Under the pieces are notes generated by a model. It ran no database searches. It was not told where the DNA came from and worked only from the letters and a program-made list of their open reading frames with translations. From Bacteroidota bacterium (GTDB lineage Bacteria > Bacteroidota > Ignavibacteria > Kapaibacteriales > UBA2268), in the NCBI GenBank assembly GCA_017428585.1, contig JAFRQN010000154.1, positions 1 through 46,559 on the forward strand: DNA of 46,559 nt. Reading direction: 5' to 3'. The position numbers were made by a program, and so were the translations under genes. Positions 23,391 to 46,492 of this stretch are shown here, one piece after another. How positions within the stretch are numbered: position 1 is the first letter of the stretch; each line of letters opens with the position of its first letter.

Positions 23391-24986
23391 ATGGCAGAAC
23401 GTTTAGATATAGTTTCACAAAGTAACTTTCCAACAAATAAAAGCAATACAGTTGAAATAGTTACTACAACAAAGAAAAAAGTAACAACGGCGTCAGCTTC
23501 CGATATTGCAACGTTAGTAACGCCAGCAATTAGCAATTTGGATATAGCAACACAAACAAACTTTCCAATCCAATCAAGCGACGCTCAGTCTGATTTTATA
23601 ATAACAACAGACGGCGGCGTAAACAATGTAACAGCGGAGGCGGCTGCAGGTTTGATTAGTTCATACATACCAACAGGCGGCGGCGACCCACATGAGCCAG
23701 AATTTACAGAAGATTACAGCACAAATTATAGTGATTTTTCAAATTTTACAGGGAGCGGAACAGAAGCAGACCCTTATCAAATTTGGAACGAAAAAATGTT
23801 TTTGAATGCACGTTTTAAGGTAAATAATGGTGGATTGTCTGATGCAACATATTTTAAACAGATGAGAGATATAGATTGGCATTTTGATGGTATAGGTTTT
23901 TGTATGACAGCAGGTACTTTTTATATTTATGATACAAACAACACAGATCTTCTTGATACTGCTTTTTATGGTTCGAGTACTGCGTTTCAATATTTTAATT
24001 ATGAAGGCGGTTTACATACATTAAATTTACATTTAGATGATTTTACATTTAATACTGATTTTGTAGCAAATTTAATTAATTTTACTGCGCCTCATGGAAA
24101 AATAACTACTTCTACTACATCTAATAGTTGTGCTATTCTCTTTTCTTTTATAGCTGCTAATATAATTAAAGATTTAACATTTTCTTTAAAAGGGAAATTT
24201 TATTCTTCTTTATCATATATATATTGGAAATTGTTAGAATTTAAGACAAAATTAGAAAATGTTACAATAAAAGACTCTCAAGTTATTGTTACTTCAAATA
24301 ATTCTAAATTTGAGCAGCTGATATTGAGTAATTATGCAACAGCCGAATTTAATAATATAAAGATTATAGATTGTAATGTAGTTGGTGGTAGTTCTACACC
24401 TTTAATTAATATTTCATGTGATACTAATAATTTATTAATTGAAAATTGTGATTTTTCAAATACTAGTAATCCTATATATAATTCTTATTATTCCAAAGAT
24501 ATTAATTATTTTCATATTAATAATTGTATAATTAAAGGTACGCCGAGTAATAGTACAGGATTGATTACTGGTGGTAAAATATATAATTGTTTAATAGAAA
24601 ATACTAAATTTTATAGTGGTTTGCCAAATTATGCTTTTATTTTAGTAAAAGCAGATTATATATATAATTCATGTTTAAAGAATTTATATATAGAAGGAAA
24701 ATCTTTTTATGGTTTCAGTGTAAATTATAAATTATATGGATGTTCATTTTTAGGTTCTATATGGTGCAAGCAATTAGACAACAGCGGCGAATTTTATCTT
24801 TGTAGATTTATTGGTTCGAGTGCTTTGCCAACGGGAGAACATGCAGTAAATTATTGTAAAAATTCGTGTGCTTTCTTTGTAGATAGTAATTCATATACAT
24901 ACGATTCATCTGTCCACGCTTACTTGGATCCAAATACTACTGGGAATAAAGCGGATGCTTCAGGCTTACAAATAGGAAATATGTAA
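23391..24986 (+). CDS. Tail fibre / receptor-binding protein with beta-helix-like repeats
   Basis: 531 aa. The C-terminal two-thirds has recurring N-C-x-[IF] / N-x-[ST] rungs (IDCNVVGG, ENCDFSNT, NNCIIKGT, YNCLIENT). Confidence 0.5.
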   Translation: MAERLDIVSQSNFPTNKSNTVEIVTTTKKKVTTASASDIATLVTPAISNLDIATQTNFPIQSSDAQSDFIITTDGGVNNVTAEAAAGLISSYIPTGGGDPHEPEFTEDYSTNYSDFSNFTGSGTEADPYQIWNEKMFLNARFKVNNGGLSDATYFKQMRDIDWHFDGIGFCMTAGTFYIYDTNNTDLLDTAFYGSSTAFQYFNYEGGLHTLNLHLDDFTFNTDFVANLINFTAPHGKITTSTTSNSCAILFSFIAANIIKDLTFSLKGKFYSSLSYIYWKLLEFKTKLENVTIKDSQVIVTSNNSKFEQLILSNYATAEFNNIKIIDCNVVGGSSTPLINISCDTNNLLIENCDFSNTSNPIYNSYYSKDINYFHINNCIIKGTPSNSTGLITGGKIYNCLIENTKFYSGLPNYAFILVKADYIYNSCLKNLYIEGKSFYGFSVNYKLYGCSFLGSIWCKQLDNSGEFYLCRFIGSSALPTGEHAVNYCKNSCAFFVDSNSYTYDSSVHAYLDPNTTGNKADASGLQIGNM

Positions 24987-29637: not shown

Positions 29638-30258
29638 ATGAGTTTAGTATTAGATAAAATAAAAGGCAGTATGCTTTTATTGCCTATAACGTCAGTTCGT
29701 TTTTATTCTGATCCAGTAATTTCAAATAACACAATAACAGGCTACACAAATGATTTAACTATTTTGTATCCAGAACAGGAGAGCAGTTATTTATTTACGA
29801 AATTAGGCAATAAAAACAGCAAAGGAACATACGTAAATTATGGTTGGAATTTTGAATTGATTGTTTACGTTCCTAATAACAATTTTTATAAAGATACAAC
29901 AGAAGCTCAATTAAATGGTTTAGGTTATGATATGTTATTAGAATTAAAAAAACTAATGAATTATGGTAGTTGTTTATTAGATTTAAGACTTGGCAATGTT
30001 CCTGATGGTTCTCAATCATTAGTTGATGAGACTTTGCCTATGGGCGACCAAGAAGCGCCAACAAATATAAACTTTTCATTGCTTAGAAAAATTATAATTA
30101 AAAATGGTTCTATTGGTTATGATGTAGAACATACTGAAATACGTCCGCGCACAAAAATAACATATAATGCTTTTATTACAGATTTAACTAATAGTAATGA
30201 AATAGAATACACAGGCACGAAATATGTAGACAATGAAGAGCCAGAAGAAACTACATAA
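29638..30258 (+). CDS. Hypothetical tail-module protein
   Basis: The track start is 29620. The ATG at 29638 (MSLVLDK) follows GGGAGG and lies 2 nt after the upstream stop. Confidence 0.5.
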   Translation: MSLVLDKIKGSMLLLPITSVRFYSDPVISNNTITGYTNDLTILYPEQESSYLFTKLGNKNSKGTYVNYGWNFELIVYVPNNNFYKDTTEAQLNGLGYDMLLELKKLMNYGSCLLDLRLGNVPDGSQSLVDETLPMGDQEAPTNINFSLLRKIIIKNGSIGYDVEHTEIRPRTKITYNAFITDLTNSNEIEYTGTKYVDNEEPEETT

Positions 30259-30494
30259 AAATACGTTTTATTTTTGATTTAAGAGCATTTTGTTATTTAT
30301 CTAATAAAATATATCAAAAAAGAATAAAAATTGAATGTATGCAAAATAAACAATAAATTTTTACGTTTTAGAATAATTGCAACAATAATAACAAAAATTT
30401 TTAATAAAATTAAAAAATAATTTTATTTTTAATTAAAAAATTGTTATTTTTGTATATAACTAATTAACAATTTTTATTAACTATACTAAAAAAT

Positions 30495-30517
30495 CCTGCC
30501 GCGTTTGGAGGGGTAGG
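30495..30517 (+). ncRNA. Conserved-loop hairpin HP1
   Basis: CCTGCC-GCGTTTGGAGG-GGTAGG. Confidence 0.6.
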
Positions 30518-30762
30518 CTGAATAAACATTTAATTTTAATAATCTGTTTTTTTTGATTTATATTTCATCAACATTGAATGCTTAGAATAAAATAGCTTAA
30601 ATTCTTTTTAGGTTATGAAAGTATTTTGAAGTAATATGAAAGATATTAGAAAAGACTAAGAGATGTTTATAAGGAAGATTTTTAATAACAATAGTAAATT
30701 AGTTGTGTGTGTGAAAATAGTCAGGCGCAGTGAGTATCTGCGCCTATTATTCCACAAAATAT

Positions 30763-30837
30763 CGCGGGGTGGTGTAATTGGTAAACACGCGAGGCTGTGT
30801 ACCTTGTTAGCTGGGAGTTCGAGTCTCCCCCCTGCTA
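30763..30837 (+). tRNA. tRNA-like gene 1, anticodon position GTG (His-like), atypical
   Basis: Hand-folded cloverleaf: D arm GTGT/ACAC with a GG loop, anticodon stem CGAGG/CCTTG with loop CTGTGTA, T arm GGAG-TTCGAGT-CTCCC. C1xT72 mismatch, T at position 37, no encoded CCA. Confidence 0.55.
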
Positions 30838-30873
30838 CGAATTTAATTAATGATTGTTTAATAAATATAAAAT

Positions 30874-30896
30874 CCTGCCGTGTGCGGAGGGGCAGG
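30874..30896 (+). ncRNA. Conserved-loop hairpin HP2
   Basis: CCTGCC-GTGTGCGGAGG-GGCAGG. Confidence 0.6.
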
Positions 30897-31038
30897 TGTA
30901 TTGAGTTATAATAACATTAATTATTTTTTTTAGACATAAATAATCAAATAATTCTTCAATTTAATATCATACTAATTTTAGTATGATATTTTTTTTATTC
31001 TGCAATAAGAATTATTTTGTAATTAATTAAAAAAGTAT

Positions 31039-31261
31039 TATTTTTGTATTGTCTTTAGACATTAGGTTTGATAGGTTTAATGTAACGACAACACAACATG
31101 ATAAGGAGAATGCTTAGGAGGGTCGGCGTTCTCCTTTATTTATTTATAACATAGCGGGGTGATGTAATTGGTAAACATAGCAGGGTGGTTGCTTGCTTAT
31201 TGTAGGTTCGAATCCTTCCTCCGCAACAAAAAATTTACTTTGTATTTTAATAAAAAAGAAT
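31039..31261 (+). ncRNA. Noncoding unit b carrying tRNA-like 2
   Basis: -7 box at 31039-31046, stem AAGGAGAA/TTCTCCTT at 31103-31136, then the tRNA-like gene. No hairpin terminator before the next promoter. Confidence 0.4.
31153..31226 (+). tRNA. tRNA-like gene 2, anticodon position GGT (Thr-like), atypical
   Basis: Same 5' half as gene 1 (GCGGGGTGnTGTAATTGGTAAACA). Anticodon stem GCAGG/CTTGC with loop GTGGTTG, T loop TTCGAAT. A1xA72 mismatch, one T-stem mismatch, T at position 37. Confidence 0.5.
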
Positions 31262-31425
31262 TAATTTTGTAGTATAATTAAATTATGTTTAACTAATTAA
31301 AATCGCGCCGTGTTTGGAGGGGCGCGTGGTTTGGTTTGACATACTATCTACCTATAAAAATTTATTATAAAATTAACTTTTTGTTTTAATTAAATATCAT
31401 ACTATTCCAGTATGATATTTTTTTA
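31262..31425 (+). ncRNA. Noncoding unit c with hairpin HP3
   Basis: -7 box at 31262-31269, GTTTAACTAATTAA box, HP3, and terminator at 31394-31425. Confidence 0.55.
31304..31326 (+). ncRNA. Conserved-loop hairpin HP3
   Basis: CGCGCC-GTGTTTGGAGG-GGCGCG. Confidence 0.6.
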
Positions 31426-31466
31426 TTATAGAATAAGAATTATTTTGTAATTAATTAAAAATGTAT

Positions 31467-31643
31467 TATTTTTGTATTACAATTAATTTAATATGTTTAA
31501 CTAACTAAATTCGTACCGTGTTTGGAGGGGTACGTGTGTTGGTGTTTGGATAAACATAACTACCTGTTAATATTATTTAGTTTTATTAAATTAGAATTTT
31601 CTTGAATTTCCTTAAGATGGATAAATAATTTATCCATCTTTTT
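31467..31643 (+). ncRNA. Noncoding unit d with hairpin HP4
   Basis: -7 box at 31467-31474, GTTTAACTAACTAA box, HP4, and terminator at 31615-31643. Confidence 0.55.
31512..31534 (+). ncRNA. Conserved-loop hairpin HP4
   Basis: CGTACC-GTGTTTGGAGG-GGTACG. Confidence 0.6.
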
Positions 31644-31797
31644 ATATTAGAATTCCCAAAACAAAAGGTGCAGGTGGTTGCTCTTCTGCATCTATAAAAT
31701 ATAATTTTTCATATTTATAATAAAATTAAATTATTAAAAATAGTATTAGACTTATTTTTATTCTTTAGCAATAGATTAAAATTCTATTGCTTTTTTT
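31644..31797 (+). ncRNA. Noncoding segment e with an anticodon-arm-like hairpin
   Basis: TGCAG-GTGGTTGCTCTT-CTGCA at ~31670-31691, and terminator AGCAATAGA/TCTATTGCT+T6 at 31767-31797. No canonical promoter seen. Confidence 0.3.
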
Positions 31798-31822
31798 ATT
31801 TTGTTATTGATTAAAAATATAT

Positions 31823-32023
31823 TATTTTTGTATATAAATTTTTTCGTAATTAACAATTTTTTTAACTATTAATTTCCTTGTAATAGGGACTTCTTACAGA
31901 AGAGTTATACGTAGAAAAAGAATATAACTAATGGTAGAATTAAAGTGTTAAAGAAAAATTTTGTAATGTAGTAAAAAAAAGAAAAAAGGGATGTTAGAGA
32001 GGTTTTATGCCTCTCTTTTTTTT
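31823..32023 (+). ncRNA. Noncoding unit f
   Basis: -7 box at 31823-31830 and terminator AGAGAGG/CCTCTCT+T7 at 31996-32023. Only ORFs of 6 codons or fewer. Confidence 0.45.
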
Positions 32024-32066
32024 CTAAAAATTTACAAAAAAATTTTATTTTTAATTAAAAAATTAT

Positions 32067-32478
32067 TATTTTTGTAATATATTTGATTTTCAAATTGACT
32101 GATTCATAAGAGGTGGTTGTTACAGCTCGCCGCCTCTTATACTGGCAATAATTATTATTTATTGTATAGATTATAACTTAAAAATTGCGTTCCTTTTTTA
32201 TTTAAGTTATCATTGTTTACAGCTCACTTTATGAAATTTTTTGGCTGGTTCATGTGTGAGTTAATGAAAAAGAAAAAGAGACAAGTTTTTTTTGTGTTTC
32301 CTCTTATTTAGCTTGTCTCTTATCTTTTAACTAAGACAGCAATATTTTTTTAATTCTTATATAATCTTTAAATAATTTTTTCATATACTTTTAACATTAT
32401 TTGTTTATAAAAATTTATTTTTTGATATACTTTTGATTTTTTCATGGATAACAGAACCTATTTAGGTTCTGTTTTTTT
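32067..32478 (+). ncRNA. Noncoding unit g (or micropeptide unit)
   Basis: -7 box at 32067-32074, 11-bp stem at 32106-32140, 10-bp stem at 32276-32321, terminator at 32451-32478. Contains a 26-codon ORF at 32231-32311. Confidence 0.4.
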
Positions 32479-32523
32479 ATGCAATAAGAATAAAAATTAT
32501 TTTGTTTTTAATTAAAATTTTTG

Positions 32524-32776
32524 TATTTTTGTATTACAATTAATTAACATTTTTTTTTACAAATAATTTTTTATATTTCTATTAAATCTATACATAAATA
32601 TATTTTAATATGTTATTTGATATCCTGCTTTATCTATTACTCAGTGCCAATTAAATAAGTTTATCATAATAGAAAAGCAAAAAATGTTATTAAATGTAGT
32701 TAATATATATAAAATCATCCAGAATAATAATGAGCAACAGAATTATTAAAAAAATTTAATAATTCTGTTTTTTTAT
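32524..32776 (+). ncRNA. Noncoding unit h
   Basis: -7 box at 32524-32531 and a 12-bp-stem terminator at 32736-32776. Only ORFs of 14-21 codons. Confidence 0.4.
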
Positions 32777-32791
32777 TTGCTCCAGAATTTA

Positions 32792-32901
32792 TATTTTTGT
32801 ACAATAATTAACTATTTATTCAAAATTTCAATAAAATGGTTTAATTTTTGATTCAGTATTATTTATATATCTTCAAGCAGGATGCCTCTCCTGCTTTTTT
32901 T
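32792..32901 (+). ncRNA. Noncoding unit i (~95 nt)
   Basis: -7 box at 32792-32799 and terminator AGCAGGA/TCCTGCT+T6 at 32876-32901. The only ATG opens a 2-codon ORF. Confidence 0.5.
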
Positions 32902-32935
32902 ATATAAAAAGTTTTGTTATTTGAAATAAAATTAT

Positions 32936-33094
32936 TATTTTTGTATATAATTATTTTTGTTTAACTAATTAAATAATAATTGCTTATCAATTTTATTTAT
33001 TTAACTCTCAAATTATATAAAGACTTAAACATAAATAATTGCAAGTGTTCGGCTAATTGGAAATTTAGGGAAGCAAAAACTTCCCTTTTTTTTT
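32936..33094 (+). ncRNA. Noncoding unit j (~140 nt)
   Basis: Tandem -7 boxes at 32936-32943 and 32952-32959, GTTTAACTAATTAA box, terminator GGGAAG/CTTCCC+T9 at 33068-33094. No ATG in the unit. Confidence 0.5.
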
Positions 33095-33301: not shown

Positions 33302-33316
33302 AAAATTTTCGGCTTC

Positions 33317-33625
33317 CCAAGACCGAGACTGGTTCGCGGCACTCGTGGAAACCATCAGTCGTATGCATCCGATACGAGACTACTTAAAAGCGCCGGGTCT
33401 ATACCTTCTGCATTACACGTCTATACTCGATACTACTAAAAAACATCGAATTTTTTGGGTCTCCAAGACCGAGACCGGTTCGCGGCGAGCGCGGTTTCAT
33501 CCCCCTTCTCATCCGAGACTCGGTGTTACCCGAGACTTCTTAAAAGCGCGGTTCTTGACTTCCTGCAATACTAAGATTTACTGGATACTACTAAAAAGCA
33601 TCGAAAAAATGCCAAAAAATCCGAA
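33317..33625. repeat. GC-rich island A: two tandem ~150-bp repeat units plus a partial third
   Basis: CCAAGACCGAGACyGGTTCGCGGC at 33317 and 33463. GAGACTwCTTAAAAGC at 33376, 33532 and 33703. GATACTACTAAAAArCATCGAA at 33429 and 33584. Confidence 0.7.
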
Positions 33626-40999: not shown

Positions 41000-42475
41000 A
41001 TGGAAAGTCAAGATAATTTATTTGGAATTGAAGCGAATGAAGCACCTGTTCAAGTTAATACAGAGTTAGATTTAGAGCAGTCAATTACTAATCTTGCTAA
41101 AGAGTTTCAAGGAGTAGTTGATGATAATGATTTTAAGAATTGTTTTATAATAGTTTTATTTTATCGTTTTATTTCAGAGAATTACGATGATATAATAGAA
41201 AAAGAATGTTTATTTAATTATGTAAAAGAACAATTAAAACAAGATATCAATTTGAATGATTACTTAAAGTCTGTATTTAGTAAAGTAGAAAAAGCAAAAT
41301 ACAGCACAGAATGGTCTTCACAATTTGAAGGATTGTTTGATGATTTCAAAGGATTAGACAACAGACATATAAAATTATTGTTTGATTGTATAGCAAGGTT
41401 GGATATAAGCAACAAAGATCATACTGATTATTTTGGTTTTATCTTTGAATACTTTTTAATGTTTTATTCCAGTAACAGCAGGAAGTACAGCGGAGCTTTT
41501 TTTACTCCTGTTTGTGTTAGTAAATTATTGGCAAGGTTAGTACGCAGGGATTATTACGGTACAGAATTAGAAGACCCATATTTTAGAATATACGACCCTA
41601 CGTGTGGAAGTGGTACATTGTTATTATCAACATATAAAGAATTAAAAAGAGATGGATTTAATCTAAAAGTAAAAGGACAAGAGATTAATAAAACTTCATC
41701 ACGATTAGCAAGAATGAATATGATAATAAACAACATACAGATATATAATATAGGATGTGGTGATACTTTATTAAATCCATTGTATAAGAATGAGAGGTTT
41801 GATGCTATTGTAAGTAATCCGCCATATAGTATAAAGTGGGCTGGTTCAGATAATCCTGATTTAATAAAAGATGAACGTTATTCACCTGCTGGCGTATTAG
41901 CTCCAAAAGGCAAAGCAGATTATGCTTTTATTATGCATTCATTATATCATTTGAAAGAAAGCGGGAGTTATTATGGTGTTGTATTTCCTGGTGTATTGTA
42001 TAGAGATGGAGCAGAAGCAAAGATAAGAAAGTATTTGATTGATAATAATTTTGTAAAAGCAATAATACAATTACCATCAAATTTATTTTATGGCACACAG
42101 ATTTCAGTTTGTATAATGATATTATCAAAGAAGAAAGAAAGAGAAGGAGTAGTATTTATAGATGCAAGCAATGAATGTATAAAAGATGGCAAATTTAATA
42201 CATTGACAGATGAGAATATAAATAATATATGTTCTTGGGTTAATGTTATAGAAAGTTATAGAAGCCAATTTGTAACGAATGAAGAAATAGCAAAGAATAG
42301 ATATGCATTGACTGTAACTCAATATGTAGAACAGGAAGACAAGAAAGAAAAGATTGATATTGTTGCATTGAATAGAGAAATTAGAGAATTGCACGCAAGG
42401 AACGAAGCTAATTTTCAGAAGATGGAAGCGTGGGTAAGAGAAATGAATGAATTGTTAGGAATAGTAGATGAATAA
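41000..42475 (+). CDS. hsdM: Type I restriction-modification N6-adenine DNA methyltransferase subunit
   Basis: GAFFTP, DPTCGSGTLL (AdoMet motif I) and SNPPYS (motif IV). Confidence 0.85.
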   Translation: MESQDNLFGIEANEAPVQVNTELDLEQSITNLAKEFQGVVDDNDFKNCFIIVLFYRFISENYDDIIEKECLFNYVKEQLKQDINLNDYLKSVFSKVEKAKYSTEWSSQFEGLFDDFKGLDNRHIKLLFDCIARLDISNKDHTDYFGFIFEYFLMFYSSNSRKYSGAFFTPVCVSKLLARLVRRDYYGTELEDPYFRIYDPTCGSGTLLLSTYKELKRDGFNLKVKGQEINKTSSRLARMNMIINNIQIYNIGCGDTLLNPLYKNERFDAIVSNPPYSIKWAGSDNPDLIKDERYSPAGVLAPKGKADYAFIMHSLYHLKESGSYYGVVFPGVLYRDGAEAKIRKYLIDNNFVKAIIQLPSNLFYGTQISVCIMILSKKKEREGVVFIDASNECIKDGKFNTLTDENINNICSWVNVIESYRSQFVTNEEIAKNRYALTVTQYVEQEDKKEKIDIVALNREIRELHARNEANFQKMEAWVREMNELLGIVDE

Positions 42476-43049
42476 TAGATTAAAAGAGTTTATAGAATTA
42501 AAGAAACAAGGTTTTAATTATGGGTTATTGTGTGAATGCTGTAATATCTTAGACAACAAAAGAGAAAGAATAAGAAAAGCAGACCGTGAAGCTGGGATAT
42601 ATCCATATTATGGACCGAATGGAGTACAGGCTTACGTAAACAAATATACATTTGATGGAGAGTTTGTATTAGTTGCAGAGAAAGGCGTTGTAACAACAGA
42701 AGAAGGGCGTCCCATAGTAAACTGGGCAACAGGCAAGATTGGTTGTGGTGATAGTGTGCATATCATAAGCGAAAGGCAAGGCACATTATTAAGATTTTTA
42801 TATTATTATTTGCAATGTGTAGATATAAGAATGATAGTAACTACAGGAATGATACCATCATTAACAATTACAGCTTTTAGAAATATAAGAGTTCCAATTA
42901 TTCCCATAGAATATCAACAAGAAATAGTAAACGTTTTAGATATGGTTTATTATAGTTATAAAGATTTAGAAAAGGAATACAAATTGATAGACAAGTTATT
43001 AAAGCAGAATCTTACTTCAAAATTATTAAATTTTAAGGATTTGAAATAA
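42468..43049 (+). CDS. hsdS: Half-size type I specificity subunit (single target-recognition domain)
   Basis: 193 aa. IYPYYGPNGVQAYVNKYTFDGEFVLVAEKG is the typical HsdS TRD core. Overlaps hsdM by 8 nt. Confidence 0.75.
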   Translation: MNNRLKEFIELKKQGFNYGLLCECCNILDNKRERIRKADREAGIYPYYGPNGVQAYVNKYTFDGEFVLVAEKGVVTTEEGRPIVNWATGKIGCGDSVHIISERQGTLLRFLYYYLQCVDIRMIVTTGMIPSLTITAFRNIRVPIIPIEYQQEIVNVLDMVYYSYKDLEKEYKLIDKLLKQNLTSKLLNFKDLK

Positions 43050-44976: not shown

Positions 44977-45467
44977 GAACAAAAGTTTTCAATAATTTAG
45001 AGGATTATAAGACATACGTCAAATTAAATCCAGGTACTCTTATAAATGGAGTAACACAAGAATTTTTAGATGATTTTTATGAGTCATCATTAGAGGATTG
45101 CAATTCTGACAATGCAACAAATGAATTATGTTTTAATTGTTATAATTGCAAAGAATGCCATAGATGTATGGAGATGTGGTGTTCTAAATGTTGCAATAAT
45201 TGTTCAGAGTGTACAAATTGTAAAAATTGCAATGACTGCTATGATTGCAGTGAATGCATAGGCTGTTCGTATTGCTGTGAATGTGTAAAGTGTGAGAATT
45301 GCAGCAAATCATTTGAATGTGAGAGTTGTTATTTATGTAAAGGAATTTCAAACTCAAGCAATAGAGCATTTATTAAACATATAGTATTAGATAAAGATGT
45401 AATAGTATTTAATAGTTTATTTAATTTTGTAGAAAATTATAAATGCTATTTATCTGATGTTTTATGA
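44973..45467 (+). CDS. Cysteine-ladder (C-x2-C)n repeat protein, paralog 5
   Basis: 164 aa. Motif INGVTQEFL, then 26 Cys. GGGAG upstream. ATGA overlaps with both neighbouring genes. Confidence 0.8.
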   Translation: MRTKVFNNLEDYKTYVKLNPGTLINGVTQEFLDDFYESSLEDCNSDNATNELCFNCYNCKECHRCMEMWCSKCCNNCSECTNCKNCNDCYDCSECIGCSYCCECVKCENCSKSFECESCYLCKGISNSSNRAFIKHIVLDKDVIVFNSLFNFVENYKCYLSDVL

Positions 45468-46492
45468 TAGAATTAAATAAAGAATATAAAGACAAGCTAA
45501 AAGGAATTAAATTTATAGATTTATTTTGTGGGTTGGGAGGTTTTAGATTAGCTTTAGAATCATTTGGTGCAGAATGTGTATTTAGTTCAGACATAGACAA
45601 GAACGTAAGCAAAACATACTTTGATAATTTTAATGATAATTGTTTGAATGATATAACAAAGACGGAGGCGGTAGAAATACCGTCTCATAATATTTTGTGT
45701 GGTGGGTTCCCTTGTCAAGCATTTAGTATAGGTGGATACAAGAAAGGTTTTGATGATGAGCGTGGAGTTCTATTTTTGGATATAATAAGAATAGCAAAAT
45801 ACCATCTGCCAGAATTATTGTTTTTAGAAAATGTAAAAGGATTAGTTGAGCATGACGAAGGAAAGACATTTAAAATAATTGTTGATTGTTTAGAAGATTT
45901 AGGATATAATGTTTATACAAAGGTTCTAAACAGCAAGTATTTTGACGTTCCGCAGTCAAGAGAACGTATTTATTTTATATGTATAAGACAAGATATAGAC
46001 AATAAGACTTTTGAATTTCCAAAAGAAACAAAGATTAATAAAACAATAAAAGACATATTGCTTTCTTCTGATGAGATAAAAGAGAATTTGTTTATAGATA
46101 GAGAACGGTGTCATTTGAATCATAAATATACAAATAACAATTTATTTGATACAGAAGAAAAAAGGCTGTTGGTTGCTGGATACAATGGGATTAAAGACCA
46201 TAACAACAACAGGATATATTACGCTGACGGTTTATTTTGTACCTATACAAAAAGCACAGGTTCAACAAATAACGGTGGTGGGATTGTATTAAACAACAAA
46301 GTAAGACGTTTGCAAAAGAGGGAAGTGATGCGTTTGTTTGGCTTTCCTGATAGTTACAAGATTGATTATTCACATTATAAGATATGCCAACAAGCTGGGA
46401 ACAGCGTTGTAGTAAATGTAATACAAAGTATAATAAAGAATTTGATTGATACAAAGGCAATAAAAAGCTATCATAAATTTAATATAAAATGA
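45464..46492 (+). CDS. dcm: DNA (cytosine-5) methyltransferase
   Basis: FCGLGGF (motif I), GGFPCQAFS (IV), ENVKGL (VI), QSRERIYF (VIII), GNSVVVNV (X). Confidence 0.9.
   Translation: MIELNKEYKDKLKGIKFIDLFCGLGGFRLALESFGAECVFSSDIDKNVSKTYFDNFNDNCLNDITKTEAVEIPSHNILCGGFPCQAFSIGGYKKGFDDERGVLFLDIIRIAKYHLPELLFLENVKGLVEHDEGKTFKIIVDCLEDLGYNVYTKVLNSKYFDVPQSRERIYFICIRQDIDNKTFEFPKETKINKTIKDILLSSDEIKENLFIDRERCHLNHKYTNNNLFDTEEKRLLVAGYNGIKDHNNNRIYYADGLFCTYTKSTGSTNNGGGIVLNNKVRRLQKREVMRLFGFPDSYKIDYSHYKICQQAGNSVVVNVIQSIIKNLIDTKAIKSYHKFNIK

Follow-up and report, generated by a model that had tools for sequence, protein, structure and literature searches.

What would a phage do with two tRNA genes whose anticodons read His and Thr but whose bodies lack the identity elements of both? 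Such a pair lies in a 46,559-nucleotide stretch of DNA deposited as a Bacteroidota bacterium (GenBank assembly GCA_017428585.1, contig JAFRQN010000154.1; this whole stretch is referred to as the window), which carries a tailed phage with an island of small RNA units. A first, sequence-only reading of the locus had drawn the two tRNA-like genes as cloverleaves with a shared set of oddities, and had proposed that these oddities reflect function rather than decay. We find, with good support, that the two loci are true tRNA genes and that purifying selection on them is very strong. Comparison with other tRNAs gives good support to the view that they belong to a small family of chimeric tRNAs on mobile elements, and we tentatively suggest that they could act in counter-defence.

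ARAGORN called two tRNA genes, and no others, in the 46.5-kb window, i.e. a tRNA-His(gtg) at 30763-30838 and a tRNA-Thr(ggt) at 31153-31227, both on the + strand. The Rfam family RF00005, with a gathering score of 29, matched the same loci with 47.5 bits at 30763-30837 and 38.3 bits at 31153-31226; the match spans model positions 1-71, a full-length cloverleaf in both genes, which have the following features.

30763..30837, + strand: tRNA gene 1, tRNA positions 1-73 (ARAGORN, Rfam; same sequence in eight phage lineages); acceptor stem CGCGGGG/CCCUGCU with C1xU72 and A73; D arm GUGU-AAUUGGUAA-ACAC; anticodon stem au/GC/GC, loop CUGUGUA, anticodon GUG at 30797-30799 and U37 at 30800; 6-nt variable loop; T loop UUCGAGU; no encoded CCA.
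31153..31226, + strand: tRNA gene 2, tRNA positions 1-73 (ARAGORN, Rfam); acceptor stem AGCGGGG/CUCCGCA with A1xA72 and A73; D loop as in gene 1; anticodon stem au/gu/GC, loop GUGGUUG, anticodon GGU at 31187-31189 and U37 at 31190; U50xU64 mismatch; T loop TTCGAAT; no encoded CCA.

The bases of the tertiary interactions (U8, A14, G18G19, T54-Psi55-C56 and A58) and U33 are all present in both genes, which also have in common a T at position -1 (30762 for gene 1) and the GG in the D loop. Moreover, their 5' halves, GCGGGGTG-N-TGTAATTGGTAAACA, match at 27 of 30 bases with the leader included (repeat family D14). The cloverleaf lies 1.5-1.8 kcal/mol or less from the minimum free energy (MFE) structure, to which it is equal in gene 1 and not in gene 2. 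The cloverleaves that the sequence-only reading had drawn by hand agree base for base with the ARAGORN drawing and also with the Rfam match, and the oddities that it had listed (the 1x72 mismatch, T(-1), A73, T37, no encoded CCA, the 6-nt variable loop and a mismatch in the T stem) are all present in the ARAGORN structures. It had further allowed that tRNA predictors might find a better canonical fold; ARAGORN, Rfam and energy evaluation returned the same fold, ruling out a canonical alternative.

The first contigs that we recovered, by way of a 181-aa protein, are 99.97% identical to the window phage and therefore uninformative on conservation, and those of the variant P0001 are too short to include the island. 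Homologues of a 531-aa protein encoded upstream led to seven further lineages (L061/L062 and L065-L069), apparently from ruminant-gut metagenomes, whose RNA islands are 85-93% identical to that of the window. Among four aligned lineages, 32% of the 3274 columns of the whole island are variable, compared with 0 of 76 in gene 1 and 2 of 76 in gene 2; at the island-wide rate, at most one variable column in 151 has a probability of 4e-24. Across the eight lineages compared, the sequence of gene 1 is invariant, and the changes in gene 2 are A59G in L065 and, in L069, G30U and a swap of C66U67 to U66C67 that preserves both pairs by G.U wobble. Finally, when the two window genes are compared with a third family member from a Treponema element (see below), two-sided compensatory changes are found at 10:25, 27:43, 28:42, 29:41, 50:64, 51:63 and 52:62, and these changes show that the cloverleaf is selected.

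Every oddity is thus kept in eight diverged phage lineages, from which we conclude that the genes are under strong purifying selection and that decay is excluded, as the proposal of function rather than decay had anticipated. The notion that the loci are decaying pseudogenes, or recombination scars from an initiator tRNA gene, could appeal to the Rfam scores of 47.5 and 38.3 bits, which are low for tRNAs, to the cloverleaf of gene 2 not being the MFE structure, and to the chimeric look of the tRNA body. It is difficult to reconcile with near-total invariance in eight lineages while 32% of the surrounding columns vary, with compensatory changes between family members and with a 66/67 swap in L069 that keeps pairing by wobble; the conservation data rule it out, and we leave it a negligible chance.

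In bacteria, His identity depends on G-1, C73 and the anticodon, and Thr identity depends on G1-C72, C2-G71 and G35-U36 (PMC9976931). Gene 1 has the His anticodon GUG together with U(-1) and A73 where His needs G-1 and C73. Similarly, gene 2 has A1xA72 and G2:C71 where Thr needs G1-C72 and C2-G71; G35 and U36 are present, position 32 is G, and positions 37-38 are U and G, where tRNA-Thr has A37, the t6A site, and A38. Sampled phage tRNA-His nearly all have C73 and a purine 37, and all 16 sampled tRNA-Thr have G1 and a U33-NGU-A-A loop, 13 of them with C2. The loop of gene 1, CUGUGUA, differs from the commonest sampled His loop, CUGUGAA, at position 37 only. In alpha-proteobacteria without G-1, a rule of A73 plus U72 resembles gene 1 (PMC9976931); A73 and U72 are here taken as features of the tRNA body because family members other than the His one have them too. 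Altogether, it is well supported by these comparisons that genes 1 and 2 are not an ordinary tRNA-His and tRNA-Thr, their isotype labels failing their own identity tests.

Not every oddity carries the same weight. Among comparison tRNAs, which were gathered with patterns derived from the window genes, a pyrimidine at position 37 occurs in 8 of 282, five of which are in the family (3 of 277 outside it); the pyrimidine is U in genes 1 and 2 and C in the Treponema copy. An encoded CCA is present in 34% of the comparison tRNAs, a 6-nt variable loop in 4% and an unpaired T-stem position in 5%. Thus, of the deviations that the sequence-only reading had grouped together, the pyrimidine 37 is rare and the acceptor stem distinctive, while the missing CCA, the 6-nt variable loop and the mismatched T stem range from ordinary to mildly unusual. 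RNase P prefers U(-1), and the potential T(-1):A73 pair is more simply read as this preferred base.

The 1x72 mismatch, noted earlier as an oddity in its own right, is present but is not isolated: it is part of a bacterial initiator acceptor (CGCGGGG, G2:C71, C3:G70, A73). The mismatch (C1xU72 or A1xA72), G2:C71, C3:G70 and A73 are found in gene 1, gene 2 and the L019 copy of the third family member. E. coli tRNA-fMet, the sequence of which we confirmed against 5,426 E. coli genomes, has the same 5' strand, CGCGGGGUG, and the first 10 bases of gene 1 are identical to E. coli tRNA-fMet. In viral contigs, the acceptor pattern TCGCGGGGTG...CCCYGCTA gave 18 matches, 16 of them initiator-type tRNA-Met(CAU), and among 321 unique tRNAs from the fetched loci the NGCGGGG acceptor strand was found only in Met(CAU) tRNAs and in this family. 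A 1x72 mismatch combined with pairs 2:71 and 3:70 is the determinant for formyltransferase, is disfavoured by EF-Tu and gives resistance to peptidyl-tRNA hydrolase (PMC6393288).

The likeness to initiator tRNA-fMet extends over the whole acceptor stem and its junction (C/A1 x N72, G2:C71, C3:G70, G4-G7, U8 G9 and A73) and to G30/G31:C39 at the foot of the anticodon stem, and gene 1 also has C32, U33 and A38. Phage initiator-type tRNA-Met(CAU) likewise have C1xU72, A1xA72 or A1xC72 and au/GC/GC or ua/GC/GC anticodon stems. Initiators with au/GC/GC anticodon stems are natural, G30 is the critical base, and G30.U40 is tolerated and functional (PMC5389676). The anticodon stems of the family read au/GC/GC in gene 1, au/gu/GC in gene 2 and ua/GC/GC in the Treponema copy, with G30 kept in all three. 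G30G31/C39C40 was considered as a strong initiator marker and was downgraded because of its background frequency of 18%. The differences from tRNA-fMet lie in the pyrimidine 37, in the replacement of G29:C41, in the elongator-like D arm of the window genes (U11:A24, loop AAUUGGUAA) and in the anticodon, which is AAG in the Treponema copy and GUG or GGU in the window genes, rather than the CAU of MetRS identity and AUG decoding; MetRS should not charge the window tRNAs because their anticodon is not CAU.

Some of these deviations are also seen in other phage tRNAs. Two tRNAs labelled tRNA-Ile(tat), at L016 1186-1259 (- strand) and L027 2561-2635 (- strand), have the 1x72 mismatch and the three G-C pairs 29-31:39-41; judged on these features, they are initiator-type tRNAs with a UAU anticodon, i.e. 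further natural initiator bodies without CAU. In addition, the phage initiator-type tRNA-Met at L046 770-845 (- strand) has the full three G-C pairs and a loop UUCAUUA with U37, and a pyrimidine 37 is therefore occasional in bona fide initiator-type phage tRNAs too.

When metagenomes were scanned for the combination of the shared D arm and T loop, 28 loci were retrieved. With the family excluded, the carriers of the D arm TGTAATTGGTAAACA among these matches are 22 Leu-anticodon tRNAs (CAA, UAG, UAA and CAG on bodies with a short variable arm) and 4 Gln tRNAs. The third family member is a tRNA at L019 and L034 that is identical to the L036 copy from a Treponema metagenome-assembled genome (MAG). 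It has the same T(-1), first 25 bases, C1xU72, A73, 6-nt variable loop and T loop UUCGAGU as gene 1, with exact identity over a 29-nt 5' stretch (L019, L034 and L036), and an unrelated anticodon arm (loop AUAAGCU, anticodon AAG, C37). The Treponema copy lies at the edge of an integrated element, beside att remnants of tRNA-Pro, and a ParA gene follows directly downstream; the tRNA is the only gene that the phage and the Treponema element have in common.

The sequence-only reading had described the window genes as duplicates that diverged in the anticodon arm. That they form one family is borne out; once the anticodon arm is masked, though, each of them resembles the Treponema copy (83-85% identity) more than it does the other (75%), and the three family members are mutually nearest neighbours. 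In total, sequence comparison gives good support to the conclusion that the window genes and the Treponema copy form a small mobile-element tRNA family of chimeric make-up. Its shared body appears, again with good support, to combine an initiator acceptor, a Leu/Gln-type D arm, G30/G31 and a variable anticodon loop with U33 and a pyrimidine 37. The 4-kb region had no DNA match among 50,697 deposited phages, in which genes 1 and 2 were likewise unmatched; the Treponema copy had no match among 72,556 plasmids; and IMG/VR contains neither the exact 5' half nor the hairpin motif.

The D arm UG-R-UGUAAUUGGUAAACA of the window genes is identical to that of type-I tRNA-Leu, as known from Streptomyces, mitochondria and the phage clusters sampled here, with which they also have A73, A15-U48 and the short variable loop in common. 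The sampled type-I tRNA-Leu differ from them in having fully paired, diverse acceptors, A37 and Leu anticodons, compared with the initiator acceptors, U37 and non-Leu anticodons of the window genes. According to the literature, almost all bacterial tRNA-Leu are type II. A15-U48 was tried as a Leu marker and was rejected as too common (39% of sampled tRNAs).

Two side observations concern these elements. In phage tRNA clusters (L010 7090-7604, L032, L035 and L037-L042), tRNA-Leu (CAA, UAG or UAA) commonly has a short variable loop and is type-I. At L019 9420-9870, corresponding to L036 110-560, there are three tandem repeats of ~190 nt, in each of which a terminator is accompanied by a tRNA-Pro(UGG) 3' fragment on the - strand; the repeats look like stacked att-site scars from repeated integration beside the element of the third family member.

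The two genes lie in an ORF-free island (ORF, open reading frame) of 2.8 kb, at 30258-33065, with ~10 Bacteroides-type promoters (TTTG-N19-TAnnTTTG), all on the + strand. This promoter motif is documented in the Bacteroides literature, and the pattern scan gave 27 matches in the window, compared with 4.2 expected, including 7 exact ones in the island. Similarly, ~8 intrinsic terminators are present in the island, compared with 1.1 expected, all on the + strand. From its sequence, the island is best described as a row of small promoter-to-terminator RNA units that have differing payloads and shared promoter and leader sequences, two of the units carrying the tRNAs. Around the tRNA genes, the following elements were found.

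30422..30452, + strand: promoter-like TTTA-N19-TATTTTTG heading the unit of hairpin a, gene 1 and hairpin b (repeat families D1-D3).
30493..30520, + strand: hairpin a, one of four paralogous hairpins.
30723..30745, + strand: leader hairpin 17 nt upstream of gene 1, with an 8-bp stem AGGCGCAG/CUGCGCCU and a 7-nt loop.
30873..30896, + strand: hairpin b (repeat family D5), between the tRNA genes, 35 nt after gene 1.
30958..30990, + strand: intrinsic-terminator-like hairpin plus T run closing the gene 1 and hairpin b unit (read from sequence).
31016..31046, + strand: Bacteroidota-type promoter TTTG-N19-TAttTTTG predicted to drive the gene 2 unit (pattern scan).
31103..31137, + strand: leader hairpin, AAGGAGAA...UUCUCCUU and then a U-rich run, lying 15 nt upstream of gene 2.
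31303..31326, + strand: hairpin c.
31511..31534, + strand: hairpin d.

The promoter-like element at 30422..30452 has 2 variable columns in 32, and gene 1 is provisionally assigned to it, with no clear terminator between the two. After hairpin c, at 31395-31425, there is a counterpart of the terminator at 30958..30990. For the leader hairpin of gene 1 the fold z-score is -5.1; 3 of its 8 pairs are changed on both sides (5 distinct sequences) and 97.5% of the cells are paired. This hairpin probably belongs to the tRNA precursor. The leader hairpin of gene 2 (fold z-score -3.6; 0 of 35 columns variable in 4 lineages) is classed as terminator-like and may be an attenuator-like or stabilising element.

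The stem of hairpins a-d is 6 bp long and 100% paired, three of its pairs differ on both sides, and the 11-nt loop, GYGUKYGGAGG, is conserved. Hairpins a, c and d each follow a promoter by 35-45 nt. A promoter immediately upstream and no cas genes nearby is the architecture of solitary repeat units and RNA anti-CRISPRs (PMC10651486), and no cas-like domains were found in the ORFs of the window. Outside the loop, hairpin c matches a Xanthomonas type I-C-style CRISPR repeat, GTCGCGCCCTCACGGGCGCGTGGATTGAAAC, at 24 of 26 aligned bases, which was reached by 0 of 1000 shuffles; the match covers the stem and the start of the 3' handle, and the hairpin loop is 11 nt, compared with about 5 in the repeat. 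On these resemblances, hairpins a-d are candidate RNA anti-CRISPRs or solitary repeat units, and a counter-defence character of the island is plausible.

With respect to function, we favour, tentatively and at somewhat less than an even chance, the reading that genes 1 and 2 encode non-elongator tRNA surrogates acting in counter-defence, i.e. uncleavable competitors or spare tRNAs. Transcription of each gene would start at a Bacteroidota-type promoter and pass first through a conserved leader hairpin, and the tRNA would be released by RNase P, with U at -1, and by a 3' endonuclease before the CCA-adding enzyme of the host completes its end. The unpaired 1x72 end would disfavour EF-Tu and peptidyl-tRNA hydrolase, thereby keeping the tRNAs out of routine elongation. 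Abundant and stable tRNA-shaped RNAs could then present His-like and Thr-like loops, altered at positions 37-38, to a tRNA-targeting effector of the host, and the surrogates would work alongside the CRISPR-repeat-like hairpin RNAs of the same island.

Phage tRNAs are known to neutralise PARIS, retron and VapC-type attack by way of changes located 3' in the anticodon loop or stem; AriB of PARIS reads U36-A37-A38-U39-C40|A41 and targets tRNA-Thr. It is because of these precedents, together with an RNA-only island that has CRISPR-repeat-like hairpins, that counter-defence is the reading we favour. The documented cases are the tRNA-Lys, tRNA-Thr and tRNA-Asn of T5 against AriB, tRNA-Tyr against retron effectors and mycobacteriophage tRNAs against VapC. 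Like the window tRNAs, these are phage-encoded and have an anticodon loop or stem changed 3' of the anticodon, and tRNA-Thr is a documented target; the window tRNAs, additionally, lie in a region of small RNAs with a likely counter-defence flavour. Unlike the window tRNAs, they keep their isotype identity and are chargeable replacements, whereas genes 1 and 2 are without identity elements and have an acceptor that steers away from elongation.

Several observations weigh against counter-defence surrogates, or against the chimeric family on which they are based. A replacement tRNA needs correct charging, yet the His and Thr identity elements are missing, and a decoy should resemble its target, yet the gene 2 loop, with G32, U37 and G38, does not look very Thr-like. 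Just three distinct members make up the family, drawn from two kinds of element, and the comparison sets are biased because they were gathered with window-gene patterns. Moreover, G30 is changed to U in gene 2 of L069, and G30G31/C39C40 is found in 18% of other tRNAs. A purine 11 : pyrimidine 24 pair in the D stem is a feature of E. coli tRNA-fMet; both window genes have U11:A24, and the initiator A11:U24 pair is absent. Among the hairpins, the resemblance to the type I-C-style repeat is limited to hairpin c, hairpins a, b and d giving no significant match. Finally, no tRNA-related, formylation, integrase or defence domains were recognisable in the ORFs of the phage.

If the window tRNAs are decoys, phages also build tRNA-shaped inhibitors and not just spare parts: the documented defence-evading phage tRNAs are chargeable copies of normal elongators, while the window pair breaks its nominal identity rules. 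The neighbouring hairpins suggest RNA-only counter-defence islands in phages of gut anaerobes. In the literature, we found no description of natural tRNAs that unite an initiator acceptor, a non-CAU anticodon and a pyrimidine 37, and the genes are a naturally occurring chimera, tested by selection, with which to examine what is read by Fmt, EF-Tu, IF2 and synthetases.

Other functions can be weighed on the same evidence. An AT-rich phage might simply supply tRNA-Thr(GGU) and tRNA-His(GUG) for ACU and CAU codons, the oddities being tolerated quirks of ordinary elongators. Both anticodons are of the G34 type that reads NNY boxes and are invariant in eight lineages; U33, the 7-nt loop, the GG and the T loops are canonical; and among the 12,285 codons of the phage, ACT outnumbers ACC (284 vs 33) and CAT outnumbers CAC (100 vs 32). 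However, the cognate elements are absent (G-1/C73 for His; G1-C72, C2-G71 and A37 for Thr), the same acceptor stem and D arm are found in both genes although HisRS and ThrRS read different acceptor features, an initiator-type acceptor disfavours EF-Tu, His is rare in the phage (1.1% of codons), and the commonest Thr codon, ACA, is not read by GGU. Because of the missing identity elements and the shared acceptor stem, we consider ordinary elongators unlikely. Judged by the acceptor stem, the genes could instead be re-targeted initiators, i.e. tRNAs that are charged by an accepting synthetase, formylated by Fmt and used in the P site for initiation on CAY or ACY codons, giving an orthogonal channel for phage genes or a bypass of an attacked host tRNA-fMet. 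All three family members have the Fmt determinants (1x72 mismatch, G2:C71, C3:G70 and A73) and retain G30, the critical initiator base, in their au/GC/GC, au/gu/GC and ua/GC/GC stems; the invariant anticodon loop suggests decoding; phage initiator-type tRNAs vary likewise at 1x72, some with a UAU anticodon; and anticodon-changed initiators are charged by other synthetases, formylated and able to initiate, as is i-tRNA-CUA at UAG (PMC6393288). Engineered initiators of this kind (i-tRNA-CUA at UAG with fGln; the chimeric Cys-tRNAj) likewise join an initiator acceptor to a non-CAU anticodon, are charged by another synthetase, formylated and start at the complementary codon, and Cys-tRNAj has elongator-derived body parts, as the window genes do; they differ in being laboratory constructs, whereas the combination in the window is natural and conserved and is known from its sequence. 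Against re-targeted initiation, we found no long stop-to-stop frames without a canonical start and nothing convincing at CAY or ACY, which is a weak test, and no Fmt or deformylase gene in the phage; A11:U24 is missing, gene 2 of L069 has G30U, and a pyrimidine 37 is not an initiator feature. With no headless ORFs and no formylation genes, the proposal is without positive support, and it is rather improbable that mobile elements of gut bacteria carry re-targeted initiator-type tRNAs (GUG and GGU in the phage, AAG in the Treponema element) that, once formylated and charged by a synthetase either guided by the anticodon or blind to it, serve for non-AUG starts or P-site occupancy. If they did, this would be a natural orthogonal initiation that controls or protects phage gene expression, and the window tRNAs, if they initiate, would be the first initiator tRNAs for non-AUG starts to occur naturally in bacteria.

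The island bears on a further function, in which the cloverleaves would be there chiefly as sites for RNase P and RNase Z, whose cuts would free the leader hairpins and the CRISPR-repeat-like hairpins and give them defined ends. The processing of neighbouring RNAs directed by tRNAs is established, both as mitochondrial punctuation and for the small RNAs of tRNA 3' external transcribed spacers (3'ETS), and such systems resemble the window in having conserved structured RNAs 15-35 nt from the tRNA ends on what seems to be one transcript. A conserved hairpin, covarying for gene 1 and invariant for gene 2, is found 15-17 nt before each gene, and hairpin b follows gene 1 by 35 nt with no promoter between. 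However, RNase P and RNase Z read the acceptor and T domain, so that the anticodon, variable and D loops need no invariance, yet gene 1 is unchanged; hairpins c and d, two of the four, have their own promoter and terminator and no tRNA, and there are no such hairpins around the Treponema copy. Pure punctuation is disfavoured because the anticodon and variable loops are invariant, and we regard it as distinctly improbable. Mis-charging would make use of the D arm: an anticodon-blind LeuRS would recognise a Leu-type core (A73, U8-A14, A15-U48, G18G19 and the D arm of phage type-I tRNA-Leu), and Leu would be inserted, or started with, at His and Thr codons. The D arm TGTAATTGGTAAACA is almost confined to Leu-anticodon and Gln tRNAs, the third family member has the Leu anticodon AAG, and the identity set of E. 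coli LeuRS (A73, U8-A14, A15-U48, G18G19:U55C56 and U54-A58) is present in full (PMC6614811). Yet A14/A15/U48 occur in 39% of sampled tRNAs and are non-diagnostic, a type-I tRNA-Leu is not charged by E. coli LeuRS, and proteome-wide misreading of His and Thr codons as Leu would harm the proteins of the phage too, which makes mis-charging very unlikely.

The sequence-only reading had also reported that the anticodon arm of gene 2 recurs as an isolated hairpin. Two hairpins further along the island are concerned.

31666..31694, + strand: unit e hairpin, which has GCAGG-TGGTTGCT in common with the 5' strand and loop of the gene 2 anticodon arm.
32106..32140, + strand: unit g hairpin with the third copy of GGTGGTTG (fold z-score -3.6).

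Aligned to unit e with one gap, the gene 2 anticodon arm agrees at 13 of 14 bases, a score reached by 8 of 1000 shuffles, and GGTGGTTGCT is present both in gene 2 (31184) and in unit e (31673). Exact copies of AGGTGGTTG lie at 31672-31680 and at 32111-32119, compared with 0.06 expected, the second site being where a further recurrence of the string had been noted. The motif GGTGGTTG is thus present in three different island RNAs (31184, 31673 and 32112), on the + strand only; GTGGTT is also found at 31326, and 3 of the 4 + strand copies of GTGGTTG in the window fall inside the island. In place of the 4-bp stem drawn in the sequence-only reading, unit e folds as a longer 9-bp stem, AGGUGCAGG/UCUGCAUCU (fold z-score -3.0; 1 of 30 columns variable), and has a string but not the fold in common with the anticodon arm. 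The anticodon arm of gene 1 does not recur elsewhere in the island (939 of 1000 shuffles score as high). In total, the recurrence of the string stands, and the shared element is a recurring motif, not a copied anticodon arm; GGTGGTTG could be a shared seed or a protein-binding motif.

The loops of hairpins a-d end in GGAGG, which resembles a Shine-Dalgarno sequence, and 5 nt later there is a GTG in hairpins b, c and d and a CTG in hairpin a. The GTG codons after b, c and d open tiny non-conserved ORFs of 2, 14 and 25 codons. The stretches concerned are the following.

30507-30530: GGAGG and CTG, hairpin a.
30886-30905: GGAGG and GTG, hairpin b.
31316-31360: GGAGG and GTG, hairpin c.
31524-31600: GGAGG and GTG, hairpin d.

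Hairpins a-d could therefore be sequestered ribosome-binding sites instead of, or besides, repeat mimics.

The window phage is AT-rich (~29% GC) and encodes a Mu-type portal, a large terminase (TerL), a Mu F-like protein, a tape-measure protein, an ERF recombinase, SSB, an endolysin and several DNA methyltransferases. The lineage to which it belongs consists of tailed phages of ~46-48 kb, apparently sampled in ruminant-gut metagenomes. Identity to the closest cultured phages does not exceed 36% in TerL and 30% in the portal, and the host is not assignable by way of cultured phages because these identities are so low. The two proteins flanking the island have no relatives in IMG/VR, and the 964-aa neighbour is an orphan. 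A near-complete related phage of 47.5 kb (L062; GCA_017475185.1, JAFVGB010000001.1) is deposited as a 'Clostridia bacterium' MAG; this label is probably a binning artefact and unfit as host evidence.

HsdM (type I) and HsdS genes and another DNA methyltransferase gene lie at 41000-43049 and 45464-46492, with no HsdR detected in the window, and the phage methylases likely serve in self-methylation against host restriction. The 531-aa protein (23391-24986) is 48-86% identical among phages that are otherwise ~90% identical; it is hypervariable and probably a receptor-binding protein. Finally, a GC-rich 38-nt direct repeat at 33303-33340 and 33449-33486 (...CCAAGACCGAGAC-GGTTCGCGGC; repeat family D9), the copies of which are 84% identical, lies in a 157-aa ORF just after the island.

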